Part shown: piece by piece, positions 524 to 40,700 of the stretch | How positions within the stretch are numbered: position 1 is the first letter of the stretch | Layout of the letters: each line of letters starts with the position of its first letter | Origin: a phage | Direction: 5' to 3' (one strand) | Length of the DNA: 44,007 nucleotides | Sequence record: PX907401.1 | Translations under genes and position numbers: made by a program | Notes under the pieces: model-generated | What the model saw: only the letters and a program-made list of their open reading frames with translations | Databases searched by the model: none | Told to the model about the DNA's origin: nothing

Positions 524-1015
524 TTATGCTGCGTTACGTCCGATCTTCTCGGCAACGTCCCACTGCTTACCATCGAATAGTGCCTGCCTGCCGATTGCAC
601 GACGGACAAGCCCCTTGAGCACTACCCCACCTTGCTTGCGGAATTGTGGCAGTGTTGCTCGCACCTTCGCCCAGTCACCCAGGCGGATCGCATCGTCGAA
701 GTCACCGGCGACGTCGTCCGGCATGATCGGACCAGGACCGGCATTGATAACCAGGTCCACCAGCGCGTCGAATTGCGCCTGGTTAATGCTCGGATGTGCG
801 TATTTGTTCACCCGGTCCTCAGCATACGCCACATCGCGCTTAAGTAGCTCCAGCGCTTCCGCGCGGGTAATGCTTCGAGGCGGGTTAGTGCCGGTGTGAC
901 CATAACCCCAGGTGTACAGGCCGCGGGCCTGCTCTTTCTTGGTCGCGAAATACGGCACCGGGCTGAACGCCTCCCATGCTGCCGTAAATCGGAGACCGTT
1001 ATCACTGAATCGCAT
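524..1015 (-). CDS. Endolysin, phage lysozyme (glycoside hydrolase family 24-like)
   Basis: 163 aa; GLYTWGYGHTG motif typical of T4/lambda-type lysozymes; directly downstream of two holin-like genes. Confidence 0.8.
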   Translation of the reverse strand: MRFSDNGLRFTAAWEAFSPVPYFATKKEQARGLYTWGYGHTGTNPPRSITRAEALELLKRDVAYAEDRVNKYAHPSINQAQFDALVDLVINAGPGPIMPDDVAGDFDDAIRLGDWAKVRATLPQFRKQGGVVLKGLVRRAIGRQALFDGKQWDVAEKIGRNAA

Positions 1016-1247
1016 GTTTTACCCCATTCAAAACAGCATTACGCAGTGTGCGCAATGCAAACAGCCATATTAACGCGGTCCAGGTGGTATCAGATACGTC
1101 TCCTGTTTGCAACAATCCGATAATACAGACCATTGCCGTTAACAGATACAGCACCCGACCGAAAATGCCATCCTGTACGGACGGCGCATACACGTTAAAC
1201 AGGGACGAAGCCCCGATGATAACAAACAACAGGACGGAGATAATCAT
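1002..1247 (-). CDS. Small membrane protein, second holin or antiholin candidate
   Basis: 81 aa, two or three hydrophobic helices (LLFVIIGASSLF, VLYLLTAMVCIIGLL, ALIWLFAL); overlaps neighbours by a few codons. Confidence 0.55.
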   Translation of the reverse strand: MIISVLLFVIIGASSLFNVYAPSVQDGIFGRVLYLLTAMVCIIGLLQTGDVSDTTWTALIWLFALRTLRNAVLNGVKHAIQ

Positions 1248-1534
1248 TTTGCACCCCCCGGAAGTCGGAACGACGCAATAGTCTCCCTGATCCGGTCGGC
1301 GATTGGCATCCAGAAGATCGCAGTTACGAAGCCCAAACCGGCGACAGTGCGCTCACCCGACAAACCAGCCCACTCAGCGATAGCCGGTGCGCCAAATATG
1401 GCACACAGGAAGCCAACTACAACATACAAAACGAAGTTTAGCGGCCCCTTCGTAGCATCGCCATGAATGCGTGCGCCTACGAAGCCACCCGCCAGACATG
1501 CCAGGGCGAATAGCCACTCGTTTAGCTTATTCAT
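1244..1534 (-). CDS. Holin-like protein (three predicted TM segments)
   Basis: 96 aa; hydrophobic stretches WLFALACLAGGFVGA, FVLYVVVGFLCAIFGAPAIA, GLGFVTAIFWMPIA; adjacent to endolysin. Confidence 0.6.
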   Translation of the reverse strand: MNKLNEWLFALACLAGGFVGARIHGDATKGPLNFVLYVVVGFLCAIFGAPAIAEWAGLSGERTVAGLGFVTAIFWMPIADRIRETIASFRLPGGAK

Positions 1535-2645: not shown

Positions 2646-2915
2646 TCATCTGCTCAGTCTCCAGTGTTTGCCTACCCGCTCAATGGCGGGCTTCCGGCGT
2701 AATGTAATACGGATCCCCATTGGTTGCAAGGAAGTCCGCACCCTGAAATCGTGTTGTGCTGCGAACTGGTGCAGGTAGCGAGTCTGCGTCAACGGCTTAA
2801 CGTCATCGCGATAACACCAGAATACAGAATCCCCCGCATTCGCATTCTCAGCCCATATTCGTATGCAATGCAGGGGGATATGCCACGAAAGCTGTTTTGC
2901 TCGTCTACGGCCCAT
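2646..2915 (-). CDS. Hypothetical protein (89 aa)
   Basis: ORF packed 10 nt after the upstream gene; no recognisable motif. Confidence 0.4.
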   Translation of the reverse strand: MGRRRAKQLSWHIPLHCIRIWAENANAGDSVFWCYRDDVKPLTQTRYLHQFAAQHDFRVRTSLQPMGIRITLRRKPAIERVGKHWRLSR

Positions 2916-2924
2916 TTTGGCCCC

Positions 2925-3251
2925 TTATTTCGCAAGCTGGGCGAATAGTTCGCGCTGGGCTTTAATCCGGGCGACGTTTGTCACTGCCGTCTCGCCGATA
3001 CCGAAGCGATACGCCAGGCGCTCACGGGCAAATGCGAGCGCGTAGTCCTGGATAGCGTTTGCGAGTGGCTGGATCTCCGCCATCGTGTCGAATCGGTCCT
3101 CCAGCATACAGGCGATGGCCTGCTGCGTGACGCGGACAACGGACCACGCTGCCGATAGTCTTTCGACCGCTTCCGCTCCTTCACTGGCGAACTCCGCCGC
3201 TTCTTGCGCCGCCGCCATAGCCATTGCGTAATTCCAGATTAATGCTCTCAT
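2925..3251 (-). CDS. Hypothetical alpha-helical protein (108 aa), first gene of the minus-strand operon
   Basis: ATG at 3251 with GAGGA upstream; promoter-like element just upstream. Confidence 0.55.
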   Translation of the reverse strand: MRALIWNYAMAMAAAQEAAEFASEGAEAVERLSAAWSVVRVTQQAIACMLEDRFDTMAEIQPLANAIQDYALAFARERLAYRFGIGETAVTNVARIKAQRELFAQLAK

Positions 3252-3279
3252 CGTTCAGTCCTCATGTTGGTGTGCGACC

Positions 3280-3308
3280 AATATAGCCGGGTGCTGGGCT
3301 GAATGCAA
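3280..3308 (-). promoter_or_regulatory. Sigma70-like promoter on the minus strand (-35 TTGCAT, 17-bp spacer, -10 TATATT) carrying the ATTGGTTGCAT motif
   Basis: Minus-strand reading ATTGGTTGCATtcagcccagcacccggcTATATT; about 25 nt upstream of the ATG at 3251. Confidence 0.5.
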
Positions 3309-3449
3309 CCAATATTAATCACGCGCATGAAAAAGTTGATCGCTATCAGCTGTGACTGCATTTTTCACTACGCATAATGCATTGGTTGCCGAGTTCATCC
3401 GCGACCGCACTTCGCATCATGCTGCCGTGTATTTTGCGATCCACGGATT

Positions 3450-3623
3450 TTATTCAGTCTCAGACGAGGGGGGCCGTTGACCCCCGTCTAGTCTGAAAGA
3501 CTGGGGTTTGTCCCGCCTGTCCCGCTCCTCTGGAAGCCGCGCCATCCGGGGCGGGACGGGGGTGCTGTCCCGCTTTGTCCCGCCCCTTGTTTGTCCCGCT
3601 TTCTGTCCCGCTTACTTTATGCA
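3450..3623. repeat. Dispersed repeat element, copy A (about 174 bp; second copy at 31279-31452)
   Basis: Near-identical 5' 75 bp and 3' 48 bp shared with copy B; contains six direct TGTCCCGC heptamers plus one inverted, and hairpin-capable segments. Confidence 0.85.
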
Positions 3624-3696
3624 GTTTTATTGCATAACTATTCATTACAGCTACACGACACGGCAACCAATACGACCAGTTAAAAACGCCCAAAAT

Positions 3697-3836
3697 GGCA
3701 ACCAATGCGCGCAAAATTTAACCTTTTAGCGATATGGGAATTCCCATATCGGCAACCAATGCGCGCAAAATTTAACCTTTTAGCGATATGGGAATTCCCA
3801 TATTGGCAACCAATGCGCGCAAAATTTAATCTTTTA
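3697..3836. repeat. Tandem direct repeat, 54-bp unit x about 2.6, each unit with a perfect 18-bp palindrome ATATGGGAATTCCCATAT and a GCAACCAAT motif
   Basis: Units at 3697-3750, 3751-3804 and partial 3805-3836; palindromes at 3732-3749 and 3786-3803; overlaps the primase stop codon (3826-3828). Confidence 0.9.
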
Positions 3837-6090
3837 AATCATCATCGGTCGCTGAAAGCGTGATGGGTATGTTCGTTTTGATGACGATATTAGACGACCC
3901 ATAGATGGCCCCGGTGTGTGGGTCTGTGTAAAACCCAAGCACGCCGCGCTCGACCATATCGTCTATTGCCTTCGTCGATGTGCCACCTTTTGCCAATCCC
4001 GCCTGGCGGACGATTGCCGATTTACTGAATCCGGTATGGTCCGGGTTATCTTCCATCAGTTTTTCCAGTGCCGCATAAAGCACTTTCTCTTTTTCGTTGC
4101 GCGGTCCGGCGGCATTCTCTTCCTTAACTGCGGCTTTGCCAGCGGCCTTTGCTTGCTCAATGGCGAACGGTGCCAGGGCGACCGGTACGAGATAAAGAGT
4201 CTCGTCGCGTGGCGTGGATGCAATTGGCTTGACGTCCCAACCGGCAACCACGTCGCCGAAGTCAGGCCCGGTGCTGGTGGACTGGTGTGATTCGAACGCT
4301 TCGGACTTGCGGAGATCCACCTTAACCTTGCACTTGAGCAGGACGAAGCCGCGCGGCGCTTGCTTGATGCCGTTACGTGCCTTTTCGTGATACAGGTTCA
4401 ATTGGCCCGGCTGATTGTCGTCCGGTTGCTCCAGGAAGAACGCAGAATCGACAGCGCCATGCAGCGCGCCGGACCCACGGGGAGATCTGCTGCCGTTTGC
4501 ACCCTTCGCCGGGTGGTGGATGACGCCCGCACTGCCGCCTGTATTTTCCGCAATGGCCTTCAGCGCTTTGACCACTTCACCCATATCGCTGGCGTTGTTC
4601 TCGTCGAACGGTTTTGCATTGGCGGACCGCAGCGCAACAGTCTGGTTGAGTGAGTCGAACGCCACCAGGCCAACCGGTTCGCCGTTAGCGGTGCGGTTGA
4701 TGAAGCTGATAACTTCGCGCAAGCCGGACTTGTTGGTGATATCCCAGCCGCGTGACTGCAGATCGATAATGTGCAGCTTGTCGAGGTCGTGCTCATATTT
4801 AATCTGCAATGCTTCTTTGCGCTGGTTAGAGGCTTCACCACCTTCCGCATCGAAATAGAAGCAATGAGACTGGACGACCTTCGCACCGCCGAACGGAATA
4901 CCGGCGGCAACCGCGCCCATCTGCCCCAGCACATAGAAAGACTTACCAATGTTCGACTCGCCCGCCATATACCAGGTCGATTTGAAGTTAATCAACCCCT
5001 CGATAATCGGGTCGTGCTTACTGAACAGCGCAACCGGCTCGTTATCCAGATCCGCATCAGTACACACGCCGTACTCGTCGCCGTCTCCGACCGCATCAAC
5101 GATATGTTCATAGCACGATTCCACTTCCTCATCGTCCAGTCCCGGAAGGATGGCGGCGATTTGCTTACGTGACATGTTGTGCGGCTCGACGTTCAGGTGG
5201 TCCGGGATCCCGATAAGACGTAGCGCCAGGTGCTGGTGTCTGTTCAGTTCCGAGCAACACTCGTTGCCGGTGTGCATACACTTGAAACGGATCTCGCCAT
5301 CCTTAACCATGATAGCGGTTGACCCTTCGCCACTATGCAGATGTTCGTTCGGGCATGGCACTTCATAACCCCGACCGGACGACAGCGGTTCGAATCCTGC
5401 CTGGAAGCACCAGTCCAGAATGCCGTCCGCCACGCCGTCATCGCCCTGGGTTAGTTCGCGGCGTACTTTCTCTTTTTCCACTCCCAGCTTATCAGCCAGG
5501 CGAAGCAGACGACGGACGCGGGCACGCTTGCCGTAGTGGCACTTAATAACGGACTGCTGGTGTGGCAGGTACATCAGGCGGTTTGTATCTTTCGTGCAAT
5601 CGTCGAAGTCCACATCTGACAGACCCAGTTGGTGTAATAGTGCATACTGGACGCGGCCCAGGTCTTCAGCCGGTACAGGCTTGTCAGTGAGCACCAGGAA
5701 ACGGGCGCAACGCGTGCCGCCCTTCAGCGGGTGGCGGTCGCCGGTGGTGGTGTGAAATACGTGTTCCAGACCCGAGTCGATGAACGCCTTACGGCAGCGG
5801 CGCAGGGTGCGGGTGTCGGTGCGGTCAATATCAAAGAACAGGATCGAGCGGTCCACCGCACTGGTCTTACGACGCAATCCGTCACTGGTATACGCCACGA
5901 TGCCATCGGCCTTACGCTTGCGGCGCGCATACTCGGCTTTATCTTCCGTCTTGTTGATATGCACCGAGGAGATTTCTTTCGCATCTTTGATAAATTCGAA
6001 AAACTCATCGGTCGTCATCTGGAAGTTTTCCGCCCTGGCTTTTTCGCCTTTTTTAGCGGGTTTTGTTACAGCGAATTTAATCAAGCTCAT
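3826..6090 (-). CDS. Bifunctional DNA primase/helicase (primase-like N-terminal domain, P-loop ATPase C-terminal domain)
   Basis: 754 aa; FFDIDRTD acidic motif in the N-terminal domain; Walker A GESNIGKS and Walker B-like VAFDSL in the C-terminal domain. Confidence 0.8.
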   Translation of the reverse strand: MSLIKFAVTKPAKKGEKARAENFQMTTDEFFEFIKDAKEISSVHINKTEDKAEYARRKRKADGIVAYTSDGLRRKTSAVDRSILFFDIDRTDTRTLRRCRKAFIDSGLEHVFHTTTGDRHPLKGGTRCARFLVLTDKPVPAEDLGRVQYALLHQLGLSDVDFDDCTKDTNRLMYLPHQQSVIKCHYGKRARVRRLLRLADKLGVEKEKVRRELTQGDDGVADGILDWCFQAGFEPLSSGRGYEVPCPNEHLHSGEGSTAIMVKDGEIRFKCMHTGNECCSELNRHQHLALRLIGIPDHLNVEPHNMSRKQIAAILPGLDDEEVESCYEHIVDAVGDGDEYGVCTDADLDNEPVALFSKHDPIIEGLINFKSTWYMAGESNIGKSFYVLGQMGAVAAGIPFGGAKVVQSHCFYFDAEGGEASNQRKEALQIKYEHDLDKLHIIDLQSRGWDITNKSGLREVISFINRTANGEPVGLVAFDSLNQTVALRSANAKPFDENNASDMGEVVKALKAIAENTGGSAGVIHHPAKGANGSRSPRGSGALHGAVDSAFFLEQPDDNQPGQLNLYHEKARNGIKQAPRGFVLLKCKVKVDLRKSEAFESHQSTSTGPDFGDVVAGWDVKPIASTPRDETLYLVPVALAPFAIEQAKAAGKAAVKEENAAGPRNEKEKVLYAALEKLMEDNPDHTGFSKSAIVRQAGLAKGGTSTKAIDDMVERGVLGFYTDPHTGAIYGSSNIVIKTNIPITLSATDDDLKD

Positions 6091-10281: not shown

Positions 10282-10452
10282 ATGCGTATTAAAGCCAGCG
10301 AAGTAAAAGTCGGAATGCAAGTATGGTCCAAGCTACTGGGGGAATATTTCACAGTTGCCGAGATTCGCAACAACGGCGAAGAAATCGCCCTGTCCGACGG
10401 CATCTTCTCCATGATCGGCAGCAATGACGCCGTAGTGAGGATAAAGCAATGA
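10282..10452 (+). CDS. Small hypothetical protein (56 aa), translationally coupled to the polymerase (ATGA overlap)
   Basis: MRIKASEVKVGMQVWSKLLGEYFTVAEIRNNGEEIALSDGIFSMIGSNDAVVRIKQ; its stop overlaps the polymerase ATG at 10449. Confidence 0.5.
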   Translation: MRIKASEVKVGMQVWSKLLGEYFTVAEIRNNGEEIALSDGIFSMIGSNDAVVRIKQ

Positions 10453-13400
10453 AAGACTTCGAACGCCTGTTTCTCGACACCGAGACATTTAGCGGGGTGG
10501 ACCTGAAGAAAGTTGGGGCGTACGCCTACGCAGAGCACCCAACCACCGAGATTATGATTTGCACATACGCCATCGACGAGGGCCGCGTGCAGACATGGGA
10601 TTGCACTGAATCCCCCACAATGCCGCGTGAACTGCGCAAAGCGATCCGCCATGTATCCCGCAAGAAAGCAAAAATCGTGATGGCTAACGGCCTCCTGTTT
10701 GACCGCCTGGTTATTCGCGAGAAGTGGGGTATTGACCTGCCGGTAAGCCAGATCGAAGACACCATGATTATGGCCTTTCGCCACGCGCTGCCGGGTAGCC
10801 TCGATATGCAGTGCCAGGTGCTGGGCGTTGACGCAGAGCACGCGAAGGATAAGGCAGGCAAGGCGCTGATTAAACGATTCTGTAAGCCTACCCCTAAGAC
10901 CTACAAAATACGCCGCTACACTCGCGAGACTCACCCGGAAGAATGGGCCAAATTTCTGCGCTATGCCGCGCTGGATATTATCGCAATGCGTGAAGTCTAC
11001 TGGCGCATACCGGACTGGGGTAATACTCCGAAGGAAGATGAAATCCTACTTATCGACCAGTTGATCAACGACCGCGGCTTCTATGTGGACGTTGACCTGG
11101 CGAACGCCGCGATCAAAGCGGTGCAGGCGCATAAGGAAGAATTGAAGGAAGAAGCCTGGGAGCGATTTGGCGGTAAGCTGACCGGCAATGACTTCCTGCC
11201 AATCCTGCGTGATATCGCCCCGGCGTTCACGATCCACAACGCGCAGAAATCCACACTTAACGACCTACTGGAAGACCCGGACTTCCCGGACGAGGGCAAA
11301 GCGCTTATCGAAATGCGCCTCGGTGCGTCATCAACGGCATCTACTAAATACAATCCGCTTGTCAATGGCCTGTCCGCCGATGGTCGCCGCCGTGGTTGTC
11401 TTCAGTATGGTGGGGCAAAGCGCACGCTACGCTGGGCCGGTAAAGGCTTTCAACCTCAAAACCTGGCGCGTGGCGAGTACAGCGACGACCACGAAGGGAA
11501 GATTAAACGCCGCGAGGGTGAAAGCGACGTCTCGTTTTGGGTCCGGTCGCACATGCTCACCAACGGCATCAACTCCCTGTTACGCGGGACCGCACACTGG
11601 GCGTATGACATATCGAAGCTAACGGCCTCGACCGTTCGCGGGTGCATTATTCCGGCGAAGGGCAAGAAGTTTGTCGTAGCGGACTACTCCAACGTGGAAG
11701 GGCGTGGACTTGCCTGGATCGCTGGCGAGAAAACAGCGTTAATGGTCTTTAAGGCCGGTCGCGATATCTATTGCGAGACTGCCGGTAAGATGTTCGGCCT
11801 GGACCCGGACTACATTAAAGCCAACCGCAAGGACTTACGCCAGATCGGTAAGGCTTGCTTGCACCGCCATACCCAAGTATTGACCAATGGCGGGTTCAAG
11901 GATATTATGGCCGTAACATCAACGGATAAAGTATGGAACGGCGAAAAATGGGTGAGTACAAAAGGCGCGCACCTTATGGGGTGGAAACCAGTGATAGACG
12001 TGGACGGGGTCTTGATGACAGAAGACCACAAAATCTTGACGCATTCATGGAAGGAGGCAAGGCAACTCGTTTCAGACAGGTGCACGATGGCCCGCGCCCT
12101 GGCGAGAGGTATGGACGCCTGGTTATCCTGCGCGAATTACCAAAACGACAGGGGCACAGACAACTGCTGGCTCAATGTGATTGCGGAGCGATGCCAGGAC
12201 GCGTCGGGTATGACAACGTCCGAAGGGGTAAAACATCCCAATGCAACCTCTGCGCAATTGAAGCGACAAAGCGGTATCGTAAACAGTATTTTTGCTACGA
12301 TGACGCAATGCCAGACGATGCGCACAGAACGCGGCTGCTCAACCGGCTGTCCGCGGCAATATCACGAACGACAAACCCCCGCGCCAAAGGGTATAAAAAC
12401 TATGGCGGTCGTGGGATTGCCGTATGTGACGAATGGAAAAGAGATAAAAGGTCGTTTCTTCGCTACGTTCAAACGCTGGACGGCTGGGATAATCCAGACT
12501 TCGAAATGGACCGGGTCGATACAGACGGCAACTATGAGCCTGGAAACCTTCGGTTTGTCAGCCGTTCGGAAAACTGCCGTAACCGGCGCAGCGTGCCCGA
12601 GCTTCAGCGAAAGTGCGATGAAGCCCTTACCCGCATTGCTGAACTGGAACGGGAAGTTAACCTATTGCGAGCCGGTTTACGACCTGATTGATGTGGAAGA
12701 CGGAAACCGGTTCCTTATTGCGTCTAAGTCTGGTTTTCTGGTGGCGCATAACTGCGAGCTAGGCTTGGGCTATGGTGGCGGCGTGGCAGCGTTCTTGCAG
12801 TTCGCTAAAAACCTGGGCCTCGACCTGTACACTATGGCGGACGTGATGAAAGGCACGTTCCCGGATCACATTTGGGCGGCGGCGAAACGCGGCTATGAGT
12901 ACGCCCGCATTAACGAAGCGAAACGCCCACCGAAGCCTGGCAAGAAGGACGAGCGACCGACTTACATACTGCCGAAAAACGTATGGCTGACGTGCGACGC
13001 GATCAAACGTATGTGGCGAGAGGCCCACCCGAAGACGGTTGCCTTTTGGGCCGAGCTTGAGGACGCGGTGTTGTGTGCAATCCGCAATCCGGGCAAAGCA
13101 TACTGGGCTGGCGCGAACGTTCGCCCGGATGGCAAGAAAGCGCTCAAGATTGTTCGCACGAAGGCGAAGCACGACCCAACCTTCGACGAGGAGCGCGACG
13201 ACCCGGACGCTGCGGGGTGGTGGTTGAAAATTGAGTTGCCGTCGGGGCGCATCATGAGCTACCCCGGCATCGCGCTGTCTGTCACGACAGAGATTGACGA
13301 GGACACCGGCAAGAAGCGCACCAGCACACGCATTAAATATCAGGGCGAGAATCAGACGACGCGCCAGTGGGGGTTCCAGTACACCTACGGCGGCAAACTG

Positions 13401-13637
13401 ACGGAGAACATCGTACAGGCGTTGTGCCGTGATATTCTCGCATGGTCCATGCCGGGCGTCGAAGCCGCGGGGTATGAAATAGTCCTGTCAGTACACGATG
13501 AACTGATCACCGAAGTGCCCGACACAGACGACTACACGACAGAGGAGCTTTGCGCGCTGATGTGCGACCTGCCTGTTTGGGCGAAAGGCTTCCCACTTGC
13601 CGCCGAAGGTGATTGTATGTATCGCTACCGCAAGTAG
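10449..13637 (+). CDS. Family-A (Pol I-like) DNA polymerase with 3'-5' exonuclease domain, interrupted in motif B by an intein
   Basis: 1062-codon uninterrupted ORF; Exo I LFLDTETFS; motif A VVADYSNVEGRG; motif B RQIGKA / CELGLGYGG split by a 299-codon insert; motif C VHDE. Confidence 0.9.
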   Translation: MKDFERLFLDTETFSGVDLKKVGAYAYAEHPTTEIMICTYAIDEGRVQTWDCTESPTMPRELRKAIRHVSRKKAKIVMANGLLFDRLVIREKWGIDLPVSQIEDTMIMAFRHALPGSLDMQCQVLGVDAEHAKDKAGKALIKRFCKPTPKTYKIRRYTRETHPEEWAKFLRYAALDIIAMREVYWRIPDWGNTPKEDEILLIDQLINDRGFYVDVDLANAAIKAVQAHKEELKEEAWERFGGKLTGNDFLPILRDIAPAFTIHNAQKSTLNDLLEDPDFPDEGKALIEMRLGASSTASTKYNPLVNGLSADGRRRGCLQYGGAKRTLRWAGKGFQPQNLARGEYSDDHEGKIKRREGESDVSFWVRSHMLTNGINSLLRGTAHWAYDISKLTASTVRGCIIPAKGKKFVVADYSNVEGRGLAWIAGEKTALMVFKAGRDIYCETAGKMFGLDPDYIKANRKDLRQIGKACLHRHTQVLTNGGFKDIMAVTSTDKVWNGEKWVSTKGAHLMGWKPVIDVDGVLMTEDHKILTHSWKEARQLVSDRCTMARALARGMDAWLSCANYQNDRGTDNCWLNVIAERCQDASGMTTSEGVKHPNATSAQLKRQSGIVNSIFATMTQCQTMRTERGCSTGCPRQYHERQTPAPKGIKTMAVVGLPYVTNGKEIKGRFFATFKRWTAGIIQTSKWTGSIQTATMSLETFGLSAVRKTAVTGAACPSFSESAMKPLPALLNWNGKLTYCEPVYDLIDVEDGNRFLIASKSGFLVAHNCELGLGYGGGVAAFLQFAKNLGLDLYTMADVMKGTFPDHIWAAAKRGYEYARINEAKRPPKPGKKDERPTYILPKNVWLTCDAIKRMWREAHPKTVAFWAELEDAVLCAIRNPGKAYWAGANVRPDGKKALKIVRTKAKHDPTFDEERDDPDAAGWWLKIELPSGRIMSYPGIALSVTTEIDEDTGKKRTSTRIKYQGENQTTRQWGFQYTYGGKLTENIVQALCRDILAWSMPGVEAAGYEIVLSVHDELITEVPDTDDYTTEELCALMCDLPVWAKGFPLAAEGDCMYRYRK
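11856..12752 (+). other. Intein (protein-splicing element) within DNA polymerase motif B
   Basis: Starts with Cys (CLHRHTQVLTNGGFKDI), TxxH-like block (EDHKILTHSW), ends VYDLIDVEDGNRFLIASKSGFLVAHN followed by +1 Cys; flanks reconstitute the RxxxKxxxFGxxYG motif. Confidence 0.75.
11933..12691 (+). CDS. HNH-type (HNH_3/AP2-like) homing-endonuclease-like ORF in the -1 frame, entirely inside the intein
   Basis: 252-codon ORF; GERYGRLVIL...CDCG...QCNLC (Zn-ribbon-like) and GYKNYGGRGIAVCDEW...DRVDTDGNYEPGNLRFVSRSENCRNRR; the overlapping polymerase frame is also open throughout. Confidence 0.55.
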   Translation: MERRKMGEYKRRAPYGVETSDRRGRGLDDRRPQNLDAFMEGGKATRFRQVHDGPRPGERYGRLVILRELPKRQGHRQLLAQCDCGAMPGRVGYDNVRRGKTSQCNLCAIEATKRYRKQYFCYDDAMPDDAHRTRLLNRLSAAISRTTNPRAKGYKNYGGRGIAVCDEWKRDKRSFLRYVQTLDGWDNPDFEMDRVDTDGNYEPGNLRFVSRSENCRNRRSVPELQRKCDEALTRIAELEREVNLLRAGLRPD

Positions 13638-16864: not shown

Positions 16865-16898
16865 ATTGGTTGCATAAGCATATTGGTTGCATTATATT
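16865..16898 (+). promoter_or_regulatory. Promoter with tandem ATTGGTTGCAT motifs (-35 TTGCAT, 17-bp spacer, -10 TATATT)
   Basis: ATTGGTTGCATaagcatATTGGTTGCATTATATT read directly. Confidence 0.5.
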
Positions 16899-18086: not shown

Positions 18087-18553
18087 AACTACTGATTTGT
18101 GATCTTGATGGCGTTATTAATGGTTCGAGTGATGCACGCGCCGACCTGGTGCCGGGTATAAAAACCAAATCAACATTTTGGGCAAAGTGGCACAAAGCGC
18201 ATGCACGCGAAGACCTGAACATGGATATGCTGCCGCTGTTGCGCATGTACAAAGAGCAAGGCTTCGAGATCGCGTATCTGACAAACCGGCAGCGCGAATG
18301 TTGGGACACGACCGCCGAACAACTGGAGGTCTTCCCCGCAGGCCGGTTGTTTATGCGCCACATGCTGGACGACACCCCGCCGCCAGAGTTTAAGGCGTGC
18401 GCCGTGTTCAAAATGGTCTGCTATGCGGACGTATCGGAACTGGTCGTCATTGAAGACTGTCCGAAGAACATCGCGGCAATTCGTCGGGCGTGCAGCGATC
18501 TGGTCCCGAAAATTTATGCGATAAACGTTGAAAAATTCACTTGCAACCAATAG
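18083..18553 (+). CDS. HAD-superfamily phosphatase-like protein
   Basis: 156 aa; N-terminal LICDLDGVI (HAD motif I DxDG). Confidence 0.55.
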   Translation: MKLLICDLDGVINGSSDARADLVPGIKTKSTFWAKWHKAHAREDLNMDMLPLLRMYKEQGFEIAYLTNRQRECWDTTAEQLEVFPAGRLFMRHMLDDTPPPEFKACAVFKMVCYADVSELVVIEDCPKNIAAIRRACSDLVPKIYAINVEKFTCNQ

Positions 18554-18570
18554 GTTGGTTGCACTATAGT
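18541..18570 (+). promoter_or_regulatory. Promoter (-35 TTGCAA, 18-bp spacer, -10 TATAGT) with inverted GCAACCAAT / TTGGTTGC motifs
   Basis: TTGCAACCAATAGGTTGGTTGCACTATAGT read directly; overlaps the 3' end of the upstream gene. Confidence 0.45.
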
Positions 18571-35077: not shown

Positions 35078-36178
35078 TTAAGACGCGGTAGTCGCAGTCA
35101 GCGTAACCAGTACGCCAGCGGTTTCCTTGATGTGACGGGTAGGCACTGCCTGTGCGGCCTGGGTCTTACGACGGCCTTTAGTATCGCCATCACCCACATC
35201 GCCAACGTCCTGCACGGTTGCCGGTGCGTTGTCTACCTGGCCCTGGTCCAGTTCCCAGTTATCGGAAGTGGTGATATCCGACAGCTTGAACGAGCGGACG
35301 CCTTCGATCTGTGTACGAGCGGACGCCTTCAGACGGTAGCCTTTAACAGCCACGTTGAAGTCGAACTCGCCCTGCCACCAGCGTTCGATGTTCTCGTTAC
35401 CGCCTTTCTCCTGCGCCAGCATATCGAGGCCGTTGGTGGTAACGGCAACCGCGCCAGGGACCAGACCCAGCATGTTACCCGTGCCCATAGCATCGGCAGC
35501 GGCATCGGAGATAATGAAACGACGGCCCAGGCCATCACCCATTACCTGAAGATCGCCAATTGCGAATACCTGTTCAGCGGAAGGGAGCGCCTGGTATGCG
35601 ATGAAGTTTGCCCAGGTAACACCGTCCATAAACCAGGACTTAATCAAAGACGCCTGATCGCCGAACTTAGACGCAGCCAGCGGGAAGTCTGCCAGGGTCG
35701 GGAAGGTACGACCACCAACGCCATCAACGCGCGCAGGTTGGATGTATTTTGCCGCTGCGTTGCTTTCGATCGCCGCTTTACTTGCGCCGATACCCGCTTT
35801 CAGGTAATGCAGCATAATCGCTTGAGTGGCCTGCGCCGCAATCTCAGCCGCAACGCTGTTAACGTTGGTTTCGATCTTAGCCATCATAGCCTTCGTGATT
35901 GCTACCGGGCCCACTTTCGCGGATAGGTTAACGGAGTTGGTCAGCATACGCGCCAGCACTTTAGCGGTTGCCGGAGTGCCGACAGGGGCGTAGGCGTTAC
36001 GGTCGGTAACAAGGTTGGCGATCAAGCCTACGGACATTTTTTCTACAACATCCTTCAGCACTTCACCAGTACCGAGAACAACAGCGCCATTGGCGGCAGC
36101 GTTGAATACGTTCAGGTTGTCGGGGATCATTTGCGTAACCGCGGTAACGAGTTTACGCTGGAACACTGTTAAAGACAT
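35078..36178 (-). CDS. Major capsid protein
   Basis: 366 aa; position after scaffold and before the terminator; AAGGA RBS. Confidence 0.8.
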   Translation of the reverse strand: MSLTVFQRKLVTAVTQMIPDNLNVFNAAANGAVVLGTGEVLKDVVEKMSVGLIANLVTDRNAYAPVGTPATAKVLARMLTNSVNLSAKVGPVAITKAMMAKIETNVNSVAAEIAAQATQAIMLHYLKAGIGASKAAIESNAAAKYIQPARVDGVGGRTFPTLADFPLAASKFGDQASLIKSWFMDGVTWANFIAYQALPSAEQVFAIGDLQVMGDGLGRRFIISDAAADAMGTGNMLGLVPGAVAVTTNGLDMLAQEKGGNENIERWWQGEFDFNVAVKGYRLKASARTQIEGVRSFKLSDITTSDNWELDQGQVDNAPATVQDVGDVGDGDTKGRRKTQAAQAVPTRHIKETAGVLVTLTATTAS

Positions 36179-36275
36179 ATCGAAATCCTTTGAGTTGTGA
36201 GCATTCGCCCAGTGGCATTAATGTTACCTTAGTTTTACGCGCTCGCAAAATTGCTCGCTTTCGCGGGCAATCTGC

Positions 36276-36977
36276 TTACTCGTCACCCATTTTAGCGATG
36301 ATTTCACCGGCCTGTTTGGTGAGATCGGTGATACCGAAGCTATGGCCCATCGTAATTTTAGACTTCACATCTTCGACAACCTGCGTCGGTTTGCTAGGCG
36401 CGCCACCGGCTGGCGTGCCAGCCAGGACTGATGCAAAATCGGCGTTATTACGGAACTCTTTTTCAAGCTCTTCCATAGTCAGCGCGGACGGTTTGCCATC
36501 CTGCAAGACACGCACTTTCAAGCTGCCGTCTTCGCCGTCTTCCAGCGTCAGGCGGTCCATTACGTGGCGTTGCATGATGCCCGCATTCTTACCGAATAGC
36601 TTCGATGCCAGGTCTTTGGCAGCGCTGCCGATGGTTAGATCGTGGATCTGCTTGCGGTAGGCTTCGATTTTTCCCGCTGTGTCTGCTTCGTGTTTCGCAA
36701 ACTTATCTTTCCAGGACTTGTCGATCGCTTCGAGGTCGCCATTTTTGCGCGCTGCGGCTTCCTCTTTCTCTTTCGCAAGGCGCTCGGCTTCGGCGCGACG
36801 TTCAGCTTCTGCTTTCTTCTCGCTCACCAGCTTCGCGTTGTTGTCTTTCAGACCCTTGATCTCCGCCTGTACTTCTTCTGCGGTCATGAACGTTGATTTA
36901 TACCCGTCGCCATCGGCAACAAAAAGCGCCTTCATGCCTTCCGGCAACGCGTCATATTCTGCTTTAGTAAGTTTCAT
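36276..36977 (-). CDS. Scaffolding protein
   Basis: 233 aa from the ATG at 36977 (GGGGGA RBS); charged coiled-coil stretch with repeated AEAERRAEAERLAKEKEEAAARK; immediately upstream of the capsid gene. Confidence 0.65.
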   Translation of the reverse strand: MKLTKAEYDALPEGMKALFVADGDGYKSTFMTAEEVQAEIKGLKDNNAKLVSEKKAEAERRAEAERLAKEKEEAAARKNGDLEAIDKSWKDKFAKHEADTAGKIEAYRKQIHDLTIGSAAKDLASKLFGKNAGIMQRHVMDRLTLEDGEDGSLKVRVLQDGKPSALTMEELEKEFRNNADFASVLAGTPAGGAPSKPTQVVEDVKSKITMGHSFGITDLTKQAGEIIAKMGDE

Positions 36978-37066
36978 GCTATCCCCCTGGGATTGTGGCA
37001 AAGCGGGCCACCCGCTTGACTTCACGCCTTAATATTATCAGCGATAAAAATAATCGCAAAATTCGC

Positions 37067-37096
37067 TTGCAATCCGCGTATTGGTTGCACTATATT
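37067..37096 (+). promoter_or_regulatory. Promoter for the clamp-like gene (-35 TTGCAA, 18-bp spacer, -10 TATATT) with tandem ATTGGTTGCAC motifs
   Basis: TTGCAAtccgcgtATTGGTTGCACTATATTGGTTGCAC read directly. Confidence 0.5.
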
Positions 37097-37125
37097 GGTT
37101 GCACACCAACAACGAGGATATGACA

Positions 37126-37638
37126 ATGATTAAAGTTAACTATGCCGATCTTAAAGCCGCTATGATGTGCGCCGCAACTAATGACGTGCGATACTATCTG
37201 AACGGTGTATTTTTCGACGAGAAAGGATTCATCGTAGCCACCGACGGTCATCGCTTGTTCTGCGGGTCCGCGGTTGTTCCCGAAGGTGAAAGTAAAATAG
37301 TAGCAATTAAAGGCCGCTTACCTACTAAATTCGAATACTGCAACATAGACGGCACCTCCGCTGCGTTCTTTGATAGTAAAGACGTATTAATCGGTACCAT
37401 ACCCGTAGAGATCGTAGACGGCCGATTCCCAGACTGGCGTAGAGTTACGTCTTTCGATAGCGCTAAGGTGGAAGCTATAGGGTTTGCCGGGGGCTACCTG
37501 TCCGACGCCTGCAAAATTGCTAAATTGTTCGACCGTAAGTTTGATAGCTTAAAACTGGAATTTCAGGGAGTAGACAAGGCGACACGTGTGCTTTTCAAAG
37601 GTGGTGCATTCCTTGTTATCATGCCGATGCGTTTGTAG
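37126..37638 (+). CDS. Truncated beta sliding-clamp (DnaN) homolog: domain II plus the C-terminal end of domain III only
   Basis: 170 aa from the ATG at 37126 (GAGGA 7 nt upstream); NDVRYYLNG, VATDGHRL, VDGRFPDWRRV and C-terminal VIMPMRL match E. coli DnaN QDVRYYLNG, VATDGHRLA, VDGRFPDYRRV, VVMPMRL (from memory). Confidence 0.7.
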   Translation: MIKVNYADLKAAMMCAATNDVRYYLNGVFFDEKGFIVATDGHRLFCGSAVVPEGESKIVAIKGRLPTKFEYCNIDGTSAAFFDSKDVLIGTIPVEIVDGRFPDWRRVTSFDSAKVEAIGFAGGYLSDACKIAKLFDRKFDSLKLEFQGVDKATRVLFKGGAFLVIMPMRL

Positions 37639-37641
37639 CTA

Positions 37642-37672
37642 ACAAAAAAGGGGGGCCATCACGGCCCTCGAA
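37642..37672. terminator. Bidirectional terminator between the clamp-like gene and the spanin genes
   Basis: Hairpin GGGCC-ATCAC-GGCCC; minus strand followed by CCCTTTTTTGTT. Confidence 0.5.
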
Positions 37673-37889
37673 TTATTTTCTGCAACTCCAGCACTTGCGC
37701 CCTTAGCTTAGCCCCGCATTCCATATTTTTAACATCAACCAGCAAGTCTTCGTCTGGATCTGCCGAGGCATTCTCAAAGGTGCAAGGAGGTCTATAGACC
37801 GACTCGGTTAGCGGCATCAATGGCGCTTTGCTTGATCCGCACGCGCTCAGCATCAAAACTGCAATCAGGACGGTTAGGACGCGTAACAT
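37659..37889 (-). CDS. Outer-membrane spanin (Rz1-like lipoprotein)
   Basis: 76 aa; lipobox MLRVLTVLIAVLMLSAC; Pro-rich mature part with Cys residues; GAGG RBS; overlaps the 3' end of the Rz-like gene in another frame. Confidence 0.6.
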   Translation of the reverse strand: MLRVLTVLIAVLMLSACGSSKAPLMPLTESVYRPPCTFENASADPDEDLLVDVKNMECGAKLRAQVLELQKIIRGP

Positions 37890-38100
37890 ATTTTACAACC
37901 TCTTTCGTGATGGTCCTGTATTCCACATCGCGGGCCTGTTCTGCCTGCACGGCCCCCTCGACAACCTTAGTTTGCTGCCGTTGGGCTTTCGCTTGCGCTT
38001 CTTGCGCCGCTCTCGTCTCAACGCCAGTGCGGTAGGAATCACCCTGCCAGAATCCAACCGCCAGGCCAATTACCAGCCCAATCGCTGCATACTTAATCAC
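37792..38100 (-). CDS. Inner-membrane spanin (Rz-like)
   Basis: No ATG; likely GTG start at 38100 (track ORF begins TTG 38130); N-terminal TM AAIGLVIGLAVGFW then coiled-coil RAAQEAQAKAQRQQ. Confidence 0.55.
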   Translation of the reverse strand: MIKYAAIGLVIGLAVGFWQGDSYRTGVETRAAQEAQAKAQRQQTKVVEGAVQAEQARDVEYRTITKEVVKYVTRPNRPDCSFDAERVRIKQSAIDAANRVGL

Positions 38101-39196
38101 GCCATAACCCCCGGTTTTTAAGCTGCGCAATAGTCATTAGTTCGCCCGTATCGGTGAACATCTTCGGCACTTTCACGCCTCGCATAATCTGGTCGGCGCG
38201 CTGCACTCCATATAATTCCTCCAGAATATGGCGCGGCTGGCGCTGCACCCATGAGAAGAAATCAGTCTGCGCGTCGACCTGCTCACTCAGCAATCTGCCC
38301 GCTTCAGCCTTCAGTGCCGGACGCTTACCACTGGGCCAATCTTCCATGCCCTTAACTTTCCACGTCTCCGTCGAACGGCAGCAATAATGCAGCTTGCCCG
38401 GACCAGCGCCATATTGTGATCCCGCCACCACTTTCCCGCCGCGTTTTCCTTTGGTGTCGGGAGTGACGTCAACAGGATAAAACAGGCGATCGCGTAGCTG
38501 GCACATAGGGGAAGTATGCGTGTCCAATGTAGCCAACCATTGGCGACCTTCGAGAATATCGTCATTAGCTTTTACCATTAATTCGCGGGCGGTTGCCGCA
38601 TAGTGGTTGACCGCGGACTTAACAACGCTTGAGATTGCTTGCGCACTACGACCGCCTAGCGCGCGCCTCACGTCCGCAATAATTTCCATAGTCGGCTTGC
38701 CCTGAATGAATCCAGCGCGCACCTGATTCCCGATCTGCGTCCGGGTCCACTCCGAAAGTGAATCGGGCCACTGTATCATGGTGTTACCCTGGAACGGGTT
38801 TTTCATTGCAGTCGCTGCAATCTGCGCGCCGGTAACAACGCCAACTACTTCAACAGCGGGTACGGCGACAGCGGGCTGGATCGCTGCCGTTAATGTGTCG
38901 GCGAGATAATCAGCCTCGGTGTCGGCGAACTCCTGAAGGCTTTCAGCCAGCGCCTTAAACTCGGCGCGCAGTTCCGTTTTGACGGTCTTGTCTAGTTGCG
39001 TTAATAGAGTGGTAAGTGCCTTGTTGTTCATGGACTTTTTGCCATCAAGTAACTCGGTCAGCTTACCAAGTAAAGTGGGCCGGAACTTCTCCCACATAGC
39101 CAGCACCCTCCGCGCCTGATCATTGCTCAGGCGCTGGGTGAAGATGTGACGGCGAATCATTCGATCCGCCAAATGTTGATTAATTGTCTTCGCCAT
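38093..39196 (-). CDS. Head morphogenesis protein (Mu F-like minor capsid protein)
   Basis: 367 aa; LATLDTHTSPMCQLRDRLFY motif typical of Mu-F/SPP1 gp7-like proteins; directly downstream of the portal gene. Confidence 0.75.
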   Translation of the reverse strand: MAKTINQHLADRMIRRHIFTQRLSNDQARRVLAMWEKFRPTLLGKLTELLDGKKSMNNKALTTLLTQLDKTVKTELRAEFKALAESLQEFADTEADYLADTLTAAIQPAVAVPAVEVVGVVTGAQIAATAMKNPFQGNTMIQWPDSLSEWTRTQIGNQVRAGFIQGKPTMEIIADVRRALGGRSAQAISSVVKSAVNHYAATARELMVKANDDILEGRQWLATLDTHTSPMCQLRDRLFYPVDVTPDTKGKRGGKVVAGSQYGAGPGKLHYCCRSTETWKVKGMEDWPSGKRPALKAEAGRLLSEQVDAQTDFFSWVQRQPRHILEELYGVQRADQIMRGVKVPKMFTDTGELMTIAQLKNRGLWRD

Positions 39197-40700
39197 TGTC
39201 CGCTACCTTGTCCGGGTCTTCTTCGGTAGATTCTACCGCATCAGGGGACATTTGAGGCAATGGATTCTGATTTCGCAATTCGTCTTCCACCTGCTCGACG
39301 GTTTGCGAGTCGTCGATGACGCCCTGCGCCATCATCCACTTGATGAAATCCGCTAGGCGGACCGTGCCAGTCTGCACACCCGACATCATCGCGGTCATAA
39401 GCTGCGCATCAACCGTGATTTCAGTGTAGAACTTGTTCAGCGTCACACGCTGGTCGGCGGTGTCGCCCGTGAATAGCTGGACGATTTGCAGCGCACGGTT
39501 GAAAGCCTTCTCAACGTTACCGGCAATAAGCGACAGGATACTGTTATCAGTCTGCGCATCGTAGGCCGCCTCGGTTGCCGTCTTAGGTGCGGTCCCCTTC
39601 TCGACCAGGGCCGCGCCCAGTTTAGCCATTTGCAATTCGCGTCGCTCACACAGTGCAACAGACAAGTTGCGCTCCTCGGCCTGAATCAGTTTAGCGTCCA
39701 TGTTCTGACCCAGGATGACGCCCTTAGTCGCGCCGAGAGCAATGCCGCCCTTTAGGTTTTTGTCCGCCCATGATTGCGTCAAGCCCGTCGCAACCAGGGT
39801 AGGTTGACCAACGATGTGCGCAATCTCGGCGACGTCCGCTTCGGCGTTGTAGTGCTTAATGTTGATGGATGCGATATCAGCCAGCGGGGCGGCGTCAGGC
39901 GTCGCGTTGTTATCCACCGCCCCACACCAGCAAAACGGAAGTTGAGTCAGTGCATTACCGTCGGCATCCACCAGCGGCACAAGGTCGGTGCGGGTAAATC
40001 CACGCGGCAAGTCCATTTGCACCTCGGACGTGTCGGCGTTGTAGTACCAGCGGCGGGCGTGTGCTGCACCGTTAATCATGCGAAGCTCGGTCCAGATTGT
40101 TACTTCGTGGTTTGCGAAGTCGTCCGGGTCTTCAGTGCTGATTTCGTCCGTTTCCTTCAGCACAATCAGCGTATCGACGCCGTGGGTCTGCCGCCAGTTG
40201 ATGATCTGTTCTGCCGAGTACAGGCGGATAAGCGGGCGGTGTGACGCCATCTCGGCTGCGGTCTGCGGCACTACATTACCCCGTTCATCAAAATGCGCCT
40301 GGCGGTCGTAGTCGACCATAAAGCCTGCACGGCCTGATTGCAGAACTTCAGACATAGCACCGCGCAGGAGTTGCGGAAGCGGCATTCCGCTGCCGTCTAC
40401 GTCGTCAATCAGGTCAGCCATCGCCCCGGAAAGGTCGAGACTTACCGGTTTAGCAAAGGCAACGCCTAACAGCGCGTTAAGTGTGCGGGCGGTGGCGTTC
40501 AGGAATACAGCGCGTTGCTTGTACGCCTTATACCGCGCCCGTGATTTCGGGTCCGTATTGTCGCCACTGGCGGGATGAGGCAGGTACAAGGGGCCGCACG
40601 CCTTCACGGCGCGCTCCCCTGCTACGCAATCACGGATCATTTTCCACTCTGGCGCGATGCGCGCATATAGAGGGTGCTGGTTATCAACGTTAACGGTCAT
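39180..40700 (-). CDS. Portal protein
   Basis: 506 aa; immediately downstream of terL; acidic C-terminus. Confidence 0.75.
   Translation of the reverse strand: MTVNVDNQHPLYARIAPEWKMIRDCVAGERAVKACGPLYLPHPASGDNTDPKSRARYKAYKQRAVFLNATARTLNALLGVAFAKPVSLDLSGAMADLIDDVDGSGMPLPQLLRGAMSEVLQSGRAGFMVDYDRQAHFDERGNVVPQTAAEMASHRPLIRLYSAEQIINWRQTHGVDTLIVLKETDEISTEDPDDFANHEVTIWTELRMINGAAHARRWYYNADTSEVQMDLPRGFTRTDLVPLVDADGNALTQLPFCWCGAVDNNATPDAAPLADIASINIKHYNAEADVAEIAHIVGQPTLVATGLTQSWADKNLKGGIALGATKGVILGQNMDAKLIQAEERNLSVALCERRELQMAKLGAALVEKGTAPKTATEAAYDAQTDNSILSLIAGNVEKAFNRALQIVQLFTGDTADQRVTLNKFYTEITVDAQLMTAMMSGVQTGTVRLADFIKWMMAQGVIDDSQTVEQVEDELRNQNPLPQMSPDAVESTEEDPDKVADNGEDN

Follow-up and report, generated by a model that had tools for sequence, protein, structure and literature searches.

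In phage lambda, the spanin genes Rz and Rz1 have an embedded architecture and belong to a contiguous S-R-Rz/Rz1 lysis cassette. In phage T4, the spanins are separate from the holin and the endolysin (Kongari et al. 2018, PMC6139136). The same catalogue placed the homologues from EP23, HK578, JL1 and SO-1 in an overlapped spanin family named 'Jersey'. Here we analyze phage sequence PX907401.1, a stretch of 44,007 nucleotides (nt) that we refer to in full as the window, in which an Rz-like i-spanin gene and an Rz1-like o-spanin gene lie inside the head module, between a MuF-like head morphogenesis gene and a head scaffolding gene. Beside them stands a single inverted gene that encodes a truncated homologue of the beta clamp (DnaN in E. 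coli), which we call the mini-clamp. We consider it likely that this boundary within the head module holds a resident two-component spanin together with a fixed inverted slot, and that the present cargo of the slot, the truncated clamp, binds a partner.

As the T4 spanins lie apart from holin and endolysin, a split lysis system is an established arrangement. The T4 genes pseT.3 and pseT.2 have a separated architecture and stand among early and middle genes, whereas the pair described here is overlapped and lies inside the head module; the two pairs have no sequence relationship. Compared with lambda, the window pair differs in being overlapped rather than embedded and in lying away from the holins and endolysin. 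It resembles the Jersey-family spanins (PMC6139136), which likewise combine a membrane-anchored i-spanin, an o-spanin with a lipobox and cysteines in both periplasmic domains, and in which the o-spanin gene also begins within the i-spanin gene and passes its end.

For the inverted gene, two described systems offer a comparison. The first is the set of lambdoid morons, such as HK97 gp15 (Cumby et al. 2012, PMC3594210). Like them, the clamp gene is a single open reading frame (ORF) between late structural genes, with promoter- and terminator-like signals of its own, an atypical composition and a patchy distribution among close relatives. Unlike them, its promoter, leader and terminator are resident and are retained when the ORF is exchanged, its promoter bears a motif repeated across the phage's own genome, and there is no lysogen to benefit, because the window phage is virulent. 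The second is the nmad5 locus of Dhillonviruses, which was reported to lie 'near the capsid gene', to be deletable and to be a site of Tmn-escape mutations (Tmn study, PMC11846954). Nmad5 occupies the same slot as the clamp gene but is an unrelated protein (PF18757). Point mutations in Nmad5 permit escape from Tmn, and no counterpart is known for the clamp gene.

The arrangement as such is already known from the database annotation of relatives and from the spanin catalogue. In Dhillonvirus and in its Jersey-like relative Kagunavirus, the split lysis system and the inverted gene within the head cluster are both fixed and already annotated, and do not represent a fresh acquisition. Our analysis sets the resident spanins apart from the one ORF that is truly mobile.

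The spanin genes overlap and follow the MuF-like gene

A reading of this DNA made from the letters alone (the sequence-only reading) had assigned the two minus-strand genes next to the MuF-like gene to an Rz/Rz1 pair. This assignment is borne out: a hydrophobic N-terminus in one product, a lipobox in the other, an overlap of 98 nt between the genes and matches of both to PHROG spanin families identify a two-component spanin of the overlapped type. The N-terminal segment of the i-spanin, MIKYAAIGLVIGLAVGFW, has a Kyte-Doolittle value of 2.05 over 15 residues and is the single hydrophobic stretch of the protein. By composition, A, Q, E, K and R make up 53% of its periplasmic part and charged residues 32%; for the subfamily that extends from EP23 to SO-1, Kongari et al. 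(2018, PMC6139136) predicted two helices. The o-spanin has the lipobox LSAC, with its cysteine at position 17, and a mature part of 60 residues that includes six prolines and three cysteines. Its ORF starts inside the i-spanin ORF, in another frame, and extends beyond the i-spanin stop codon. These signal assignments rest on a hydropathy calculation, the lipobox pattern and homology. Neither spanin has a significant match in Pfam or NCBIfam, and both are identified by PHROGs and the published catalogue only. The BASEL annotation of phage TheodorHerzl names both spanin genes.

The GTG start codon of the i-spanin overlaps the stop codon of the MuF-like gene (cGTGATTAA) and is preceded by a GGGGG stretch. 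The TTG at 38130 is another possible start, for which no Shine-Dalgarno sequence is visible. Because start and stop codons overlap, translation of the spanins may be coupled to that of the MuF-like gene. The spanin genes are read in the late direction, and their products would be made alongside the late head proteins. Homology, gene architecture and the analogy to lambda Rz/Rz1 suggest that the pair would act after the holins and endolysin encoded at a distance, spanning the periplasm and disrupting the outer membrane.

The two holin genes and the endolysin gene stand in the same order as gp60-62 of TheodorHerzl. If the window is a complete circular permutation, 6,430 nt separate the endolysin stop codon from the i-spanin start, in agreement with the gap of about 6.5 kb first estimated from the sequence. 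Reading the window as a closed circle is consistent with the gene order of TheodorHerzl, which is no proof of it.

A fixed inverted slot carries exchangeable ORFs

The spanins and the clamp-like gene had been described as converging. They do converge, but the inversion is limited to the clamp-like gene, and the spanins are co-directional with the head genes. Comparison with phage SECphi18 delimits the variable part: homology with the window covers 36900-37129 and 37638-37800, there is none between, and the breakpoints coincide with the borders of the ORF. At this position SECphi18 encodes Nmad5 (Pfam PF18757, E = 1e-57), and EP23 carries the clamp gene and Nmad5 in tandem. No Nmad5 gene was found anywhere in the window. 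The Nmad5 gene of phage SM_A8 (5050-5811) also lies at the slot position, and the clamp gene of TheodorHerzl lies at 5007-5525.

The signals that frame these ORFs are shared. Both the putative slot promoter and the terminator-like hairpin at the other end of the slot are conserved in SECphi18 and EP23, the former despite different cargo. The leader CAACAACGAGGA stands upstream of the window clamp ORF, of the SECphi18 Nmad5 ORF and of each of the two ORFs of EP23. On the plus strand, the hairpin folds as RNA with -14.5 kcal/mol (z = -2.7).

The distribution of the cargo is uneven. Of about 159 related records, 16 carry the clamp gene at 90% identity or more; with a threshold of 60% identity, Nmad5 is found in about 150. 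These counts, and that of the spanins below, come from separate searches. Among 30 listed records of the 159 that match positions 36000-39500, 16 include the clamp stretch. In six of the 30 the clamp gene stands by itself, as in the window, and ten, which match in two pieces spanning about 0.8 kb more (as in EP23, the one inspected), probably carry clamp and Nmad5 together. The clamp ORF has a GC content of 0.47, against 0.543 for the genome, and falls in the lowest 3.3% of equal-sized windows.

These comparisons suggest that the variable cassette is the plus-strand ORF only, and that it behaves like a moron-type cassette. Because its putative promoter carries a phage-wide motif, the slot element departs from the classic moron, which is self-contained and brings a foreign promoter. 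We propose that a constant promoter-leader-terminator frame, presumably active, sits at the junction of the packaging/portal/MuF block and the scaffold/capsid block, and that accessory DNA-metabolism ORFs may be swapped there, ORF for ORF, by recombination in the conserved flanks, leaving the head genes undisturbed. Since its signals are constant, its cargo varies and Nmad5 can be deleted (PMC11846954), the slot offers a natural payload site for engineering coliphages of the therapeutic type.

The mini-clamp appears to keep the cleft of the beta clamp without its ring

The plus-strand gene had been called clamp-like, and its product is a genuine beta-clamp homologue by sequence, profile and fold searches. 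A phmmer search of the PDB gave beta-clamp matches with E = 7e-9 to 3e-8; in all, it found 34 beta-clamp sequences and one ribosomal protein without significance (E = 0.76). A profile of 35 family members matched E. coli beta with E = 4e-20. The AlphaFold2 model has a mean predicted local distance difference test score (pLDDT) of 93.3 and a predicted template modelling score (pTM) of 0.89, and the best 50 listed Foldseek matches to it are all beta clamps (E. coli beta: E = 1.5e-8, template modelling (TM) score 0.66). Against TIGR00663, the protein scores 26.7 bits, with a cut-off of 137.65. The ORF was listed mechanically as 37081-37638; besides the likely start given in Table 1, an alternative ATG at 37120 would give 172 amino acids.

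Residues 8-110 of the mini-clamp align to domain II of beta. For the last 60 residues, which terminate in the native tail MPMRL, alignment to either half of domain III is equally good; overall, the alignments cover residues 137-290 or 313-366 of E. coli beta. Because the C-terminal 60 residues fit either half, we describe the protein as domain II plus a single half-domain of domain III. E. coli DnaN has 366 amino acids, against 170 in the mini-clamp, and the two have in common domain II and the C-terminal strand with its MPMRL tail. Domain I is absent from the mini-clamp, as are about 60 residues of domain III that include the Ile272/Leu273 dimer interface. With these parts missing, the protein is unable to form a normal ring.

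The residues that form the pocket for clamp-binding motifs were taken from a review (PMC11139829). The invariant columns of the 35-member family alignment coincide with these published residues, and 16 of the 17 that could be mapped are identical in the mini-clamp. At the level of sequence, the cleft for clamp-binding motifs is kept. The ratio of nonsynonymous to synonymous substitution rates is 0.07-0.39, which indicates purifying selection.

Existing labels for this gene disagree. In the GenBank record of SO-1 it appears as 'putative DNA polymerase III beta subunit; possible moron gene product', and PHROG 3007, and via it RefSeq, names the family 'RusA-like Holliday junction resolvase'. We rejected the RusA label as an annotation error, as no Pfam RusA family was matched at E up to 1 and as sequence, profile and fold lead to beta clamps only. 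The wrong label is being propagated (Table 1).

Mini-clamps in other phages

At E up to 1e-3, the family comprises 2,509 clusters at 50% identity; of the 150 best, almost every one has a length of 165-230 amino acids. Members were found in 289 phage records, spread over many genera. The gene is inverted inside the structural module in Kagunavirus, Skatevirus, Roufvirus, a Klebsiella phage, Bcep781 and Shewanella phage 1/41, and in Skatevirus, Roufvirus and the Klebsiella phage it belongs to a small inverted operon with a ParB-like gene. Elsewhere it belongs to the replication module and lies directly after the DNA polymerase gene (PEi21 and BcepC6B), after a primase-polymerase gene (Opt-169) or between Dam and Dcm methyltransferase genes (Sortsne and Lumpael). 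In lambdoid and P22-like prophages of enterobacteria (L018-L020, 4680-7996), it is found between cII and a DUF2740 gene, before genes for an initiator and a DnaB-type helicase; this position between cII and the initiator puts the mini-clamp at the head of the early-right replication module. Acinetobacter phage Cato, a weak match (28% over 81% of the query), has it co-directional among tail and baseplate genes. Wherever replication genes are visible, the mini-clamp gene points the same way as they do.

The ParB-like operons were observed in Skatevirus (L006, 2559-4531), the Klebsiella phage (L007, 2228-4716) and Vibrio phage pYD38-A (L010, 1827-3765). In these three, the mini-clamp gene is last or next to last in the operon, which has capsid genes on one side and connector genes on the other. 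The Skate operon ends in an annotated bidirectional terminator.

Possible roles of the mini-clamp

Because the cleft is kept and the normal ring is impossible, the mini-clamp should bind a partner carrying a clamp-binding motif off the host clamp. Most likely, it would hold such a partner, from host or phage, away from the host clamp, as a competitor or as an adaptor that bridges to a phage protein, and it would be made together with the replication genes as an accessory protein. The nearest literature provides leads only, namely late transcription in phage Mu, for which MuC recruits the host clamp (PMC12867686), and T4 gp45.

Several points weigh against our reading of this locus as a resident spanin next to a slot with a partner-binding cargo. 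A full-text literature search found no functional study of phage truncated clamps, and in the literature we found no genetic test of a spanin of the EP23-to-SO-1 subfamily. We infer the timing of the mini-clamp from gene orientation, motif sharing and neighbours in other phages. The pocket residues are the most conserved part of real clamps too, and their retention shows constraint on the cleft, not a ligand; the one exception among them, N320, is alanine in the window allele. When the window ORFs were scanned with strict patterns, clamp-binding motifs amounted to three Qxx[LM]F matches, about as many as chance is estimated to produce, and the polymerase had none. A homo-oligomeric ring is conceivable, its six domains supplied by four protomers of 1.5 domains each. 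The consensus scan of the region for promoters and terminators returned no more matches than shuffled sequence, and the promoter- and terminator-like sites are consensus matches only. On the minus strand, the hairpin is weaker (-11.1 kcal/mol, z = -1.1), with UUUUUU after it.

One of the three Qxx[LM]F matches is the C-terminal QRELF in the product of 2925-3251 (...AQRELFAQLAK). This match is weak and probably lies within a helix, and it is of interest only because the leader of that gene resembles the slot leader.

The mini-clamp could also act in counter-defence or host takeover, as a decoy whose soluble cleft absorbs host clamp-binding proteins or a clamp-directed defence toxin. [quoted passage not shown] We regard such a role as possible, but not probable. 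A conserved cleft together with the loss of the ring-forming parts fits a decoy, as does a gene that is accessory, patchy and compositionally foreign, and as does a slot shared with Nmad5, to which Tmn-escape mutations map (PMC11846954). Dhillonviruses encode their own polymerase, helicases and single-stranded DNA-binding protein (SSB), and could therefore tolerate interference with the host replisome. Against this, the lambdoid prophages carry the family and have no polymerase gene in the 10-kb regions examined, and blanket sequestration would hurt them if they depended on the host. Lambdoid phages generally depend on host Pol III and the host clamp. A PADLOC search with the mini-clamp and Nmad5 gave no match, in a database that holds defence and not counter-defence genes, and the literature reports no mini-clamp phenotype.

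A place in the replisome is doubtful. Here the mini-clamp would be a non-canonical processivity factor for the family-A polymerase of the phage, working either as a DNA-binding clamp-fold protein without a ring, like herpesvirus UL42 and UL44, or as a homotetrameric ring. UL42 and UL44 are clamp-fold viral proteins on the two-domain plan of PCNA, do without a closed, loader-dependent ring and are essential partners of their polymerases. The mini-clamp has no sequence relationship to them, and its gene is accessory where theirs are essential. Gene position favours the idea, given the neighbouring polymerase or primase-polymerase genes of PEi21, BcepC6B and Opt-169 and the place at the head of the lambdoid replication module. 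The protein is slightly basic (isoelectric point 8.3), four times 1.5 domains equal the six domains of a clamp ring, and the truncated half-domain should expose a surface that favours self-association. However, with 16 occurrences in about 159 Dhillonvirus records and the same layout in four inspected relatives, the gene is dispensable in the genus, which argues against an essential polymerase subunit. The TheodorHerzl polymerase is 90-92% identical to that of the window outside an insertion described below, the strict patterns found no clamp-binding motif in the window polymerase, and the lambdoid prophages that bear a mini-clamp have no polymerase in the regions seen.

For the family as a whole, we offer the tentative suggestion that the ring was discarded and the cleft kept, and that its members may capture or re-route clamp-binding proteins, or may form a four-subunit clamp ring. 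If true, this would be a way, as yet undescribed, for phages to interfere with the hub of the host replisome or to put it to new use. The family is large and widespread, and it is a cheap target for learning how phages manipulate the clamp interaction hub.

Resident spanins beside a mobile ORF

Spanin DNA is present in 131 related records. In all four Dhillonvirus relatives inspected, the spanins directly follow the MuF-like gene, whatever the neighbouring slot holds. The GC contents of the two genes are 0.55 and 0.51, against 0.543 for the genome, and no promoter-like site of their own was found. In fPoEco01 (Guernseyvirinae), the only Kagunavirus examined, homologous spanins also lie between the MuF and scaffold genes, with 39% identity for the i-spanin and 38% for the o-spanin (E about 1e-13), a lipobox LASC in the o-spanin, and the pair on the opposite side of the inverted mini-clamp gene. 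Given the start/stop overlap, the ordinary GC content, the 131 records and the Kagunavirus homologues, we conclude that the split of the lysis cassette is ancient and fixed in this lineage.

The sequence-only reading had taken the clamp-like gene and the spanin pair together for a moron-type acquisition. For the clamp ORF this stands, on its own promoter- and terminator-like sites, its GC content of 0.47 and its presence in 16 of about 159 records; for the spanins it fails, on the four grounds just named. Synteny points the same way: relatives keep the spanins beside MuF, and acquisition of the island as a whole is not supported. That the whole 1.1-kb stretch of clamp-like gene and Rz/Rz1 entered as one moron-type insertion and so split the lysis cassette is highly improbable and we reject it, for although the head genes are interrupted, the genes converge on a terminator-like hairpin, the clamp ORF has an atypical GC content and the SO-1 record speaks of a possible moron, the spanins overlap the MuF stop codon, have typical GC, are distributed widely and in the inspected relatives independently of slot content, recur between MuF and scaffold in the single Kagunavirus examined, and are left outside the variable part by the SECphi18 breakpoints.

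Genome identity and gene order

A total of 159 phage records match positions 36000-39500 with identities of 80-99%, and 155 reach at least 90%. The 159 are almost all Escherichia or Shigella phages or named Dhillonvirus, and Sodalis phage SO-1 is among them as well. The window genome is that of a Dhillonvirus coliphage of the HK578/SO-1/EP23 group. Its gene order is, over the whole window, that of TheodorHerzl in reverse, and gene order is common to SO-1, TheodorHerzl, SECphi18 and EP23. On the minus strand, the late genes run from the two holins, endolysin, an exonuclease-like gene, small and large terminase and portal to the MuF-like gene, i-spanin, o-spanin, the inverted gene, scaffold, major capsid, and connector and tail genes. 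The plus strand carries the replication genes (family-A polymerase, helicases, SSB and methyltransferases). The placement of the clamp-like gene and the Rz/Rz1 pair between the MuF-like and scaffold genes, proposed from the sequence, is confirmed, with each feature at or near its first assigned position (Table 1).

The MuF-like gene matches Pfam Phage_Mu_F weakly (E = 0.16) and is labelled as head morphogenesis or minor capsid protein in relatives. For the scaffold gene, the start is most likely the ATG at 36977 (MKLTKAEY..., with GGGGGA upstream) and not the mechanically listed GTG at 37025, a choice based on GGGGGA as the Shine-Dalgarno sequence and on how relatives are annotated. No minus-strand sigma-70 promoter for this gene was found at the threshold of the consensus scan. 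By eye, the best promoter candidate in the scaffold leader (36978-37066, minus strand) is TTGCGA-16-TAATAT, with 8 of 12 matches; the leader also holds a GCGAT-N7-ATCGC inverted repeat and a GCGGG-N3-CCCGC hairpin.

Table 1. Features of the head-module boundary and of the lysis genes in the window, with mini-clamp genes labelled RusA-like in other sequences (positions in nt)
Feature	Position	Strand	Evidence or remark
Endolysin	524-1015	-	Pfam Phage_lysozyme, E = 8e-21
Holin	1002-1247	-	PHROG 2508 'holin', E = 2e-27
Holin	1244-1534	-	PHROG 2359 'holin', E = 9e-32
Head scaffolding gene	36276-36977	-	PHROG 206 'head scaffolding protein', E = 8e-51; downstream border of the region
Putative sigma-70-like promoter (TTGCAA, 18 nt, TATATT)	37067-37096	+	Consensus scan, 9/12 matches
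Two copies of ATTGGTTGCA	37080-37103	+	Overlap the spacer and -10 region of the slot promoter
Leader and ribosome-binding stretch CAACAACGAGGA	37107-37118	+	5' junction of the cassette; unique in the window
Mini-clamp gene (170 amino acids)	37126-37638	+	Likely ATG at 37126, 7 nt after GAGGA; under the RusA label of PHROG 3007/RefSeq
Terminator-like GC hairpin, U-run on both strands	37651-37669		Consensus scan; point where the spanin and clamp-like genes converge
o-spanin (Rz1-like, 76 amino acids), predicted outer-membrane lipoprotein precursor	37659-37889	-	PHROG 5672, E = 1e-25
i-spanin (Rz-like, 102 amino acids)	37792-38100	-	PHROG 2536 'Rz-like spanin', E = 8e-35
MuF-like head morphogenesis gene	38093-39196	-	PHROG 241 'head morphogenesis', E = 1e-116; upstream border of the region
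Mini-clamp gene, L001	2625-3143		Under the RusA label of PHROG 3007/RefSeq
Mini-clamp gene, L004	2630-3142		Under the RusA label of PHROG 3007/RefSeq
Mini-clamp gene, L006	3995-4531		Under the RusA label of PHROG 3007/RefSeq

A repeated motif, tandem repeats and a polymerase insertion

The motif in the slot promoter recurs across the genome. With one mismatch allowed, the 10-mer ATTGGTTGCA has 18 sites in the window against 3.4 expected, and none of 100 shuffles reaches 18. The sites span 282-37103, with clusters at 2719-3814, 16865-16891, 18542-18563 and 37080-37103. When their coordinates are read against the ORF maps, they are mostly intergenic, lie in or near the replication-gene part and are often paired, and they adjoin -10 elements resembling TATATT or TATAGT. 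The motif may be a phage-wide operator or promoter element.

Two further observations were made. At 3697-3836, just upstream of a gene for a helicase of 754 amino acids (3826-6090, minus strand), there is a 54-bp tandem repeat with 2.6 copies and 97% match, whose unit holds the motif ATTGGTTGC and the palindrome GGGAATTCCC. An origin of the iteron type is one possible function of this repeat, and a promoter array is another. The gene at 2925-3251 (minus strand), which encodes a product of 108 amino acids (PHROG 9839), has a leader at 3252-3290 that is near-identical to the slot leader (TATTGGTCGCACACCAACATGAGGA).

The family-A DNA polymerase ORF of the window (10449-13637, plus strand) encodes 1,062 amino acids, against 763 in TheodorHerzl. 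On both flanks of an additional block of about 235-300 residues, which starts ...GKA/CLHRHT... (the stroke marks its left border), the two proteins align at 90-92%. The block, an insertion at about 11850-12650, looks like an intein.

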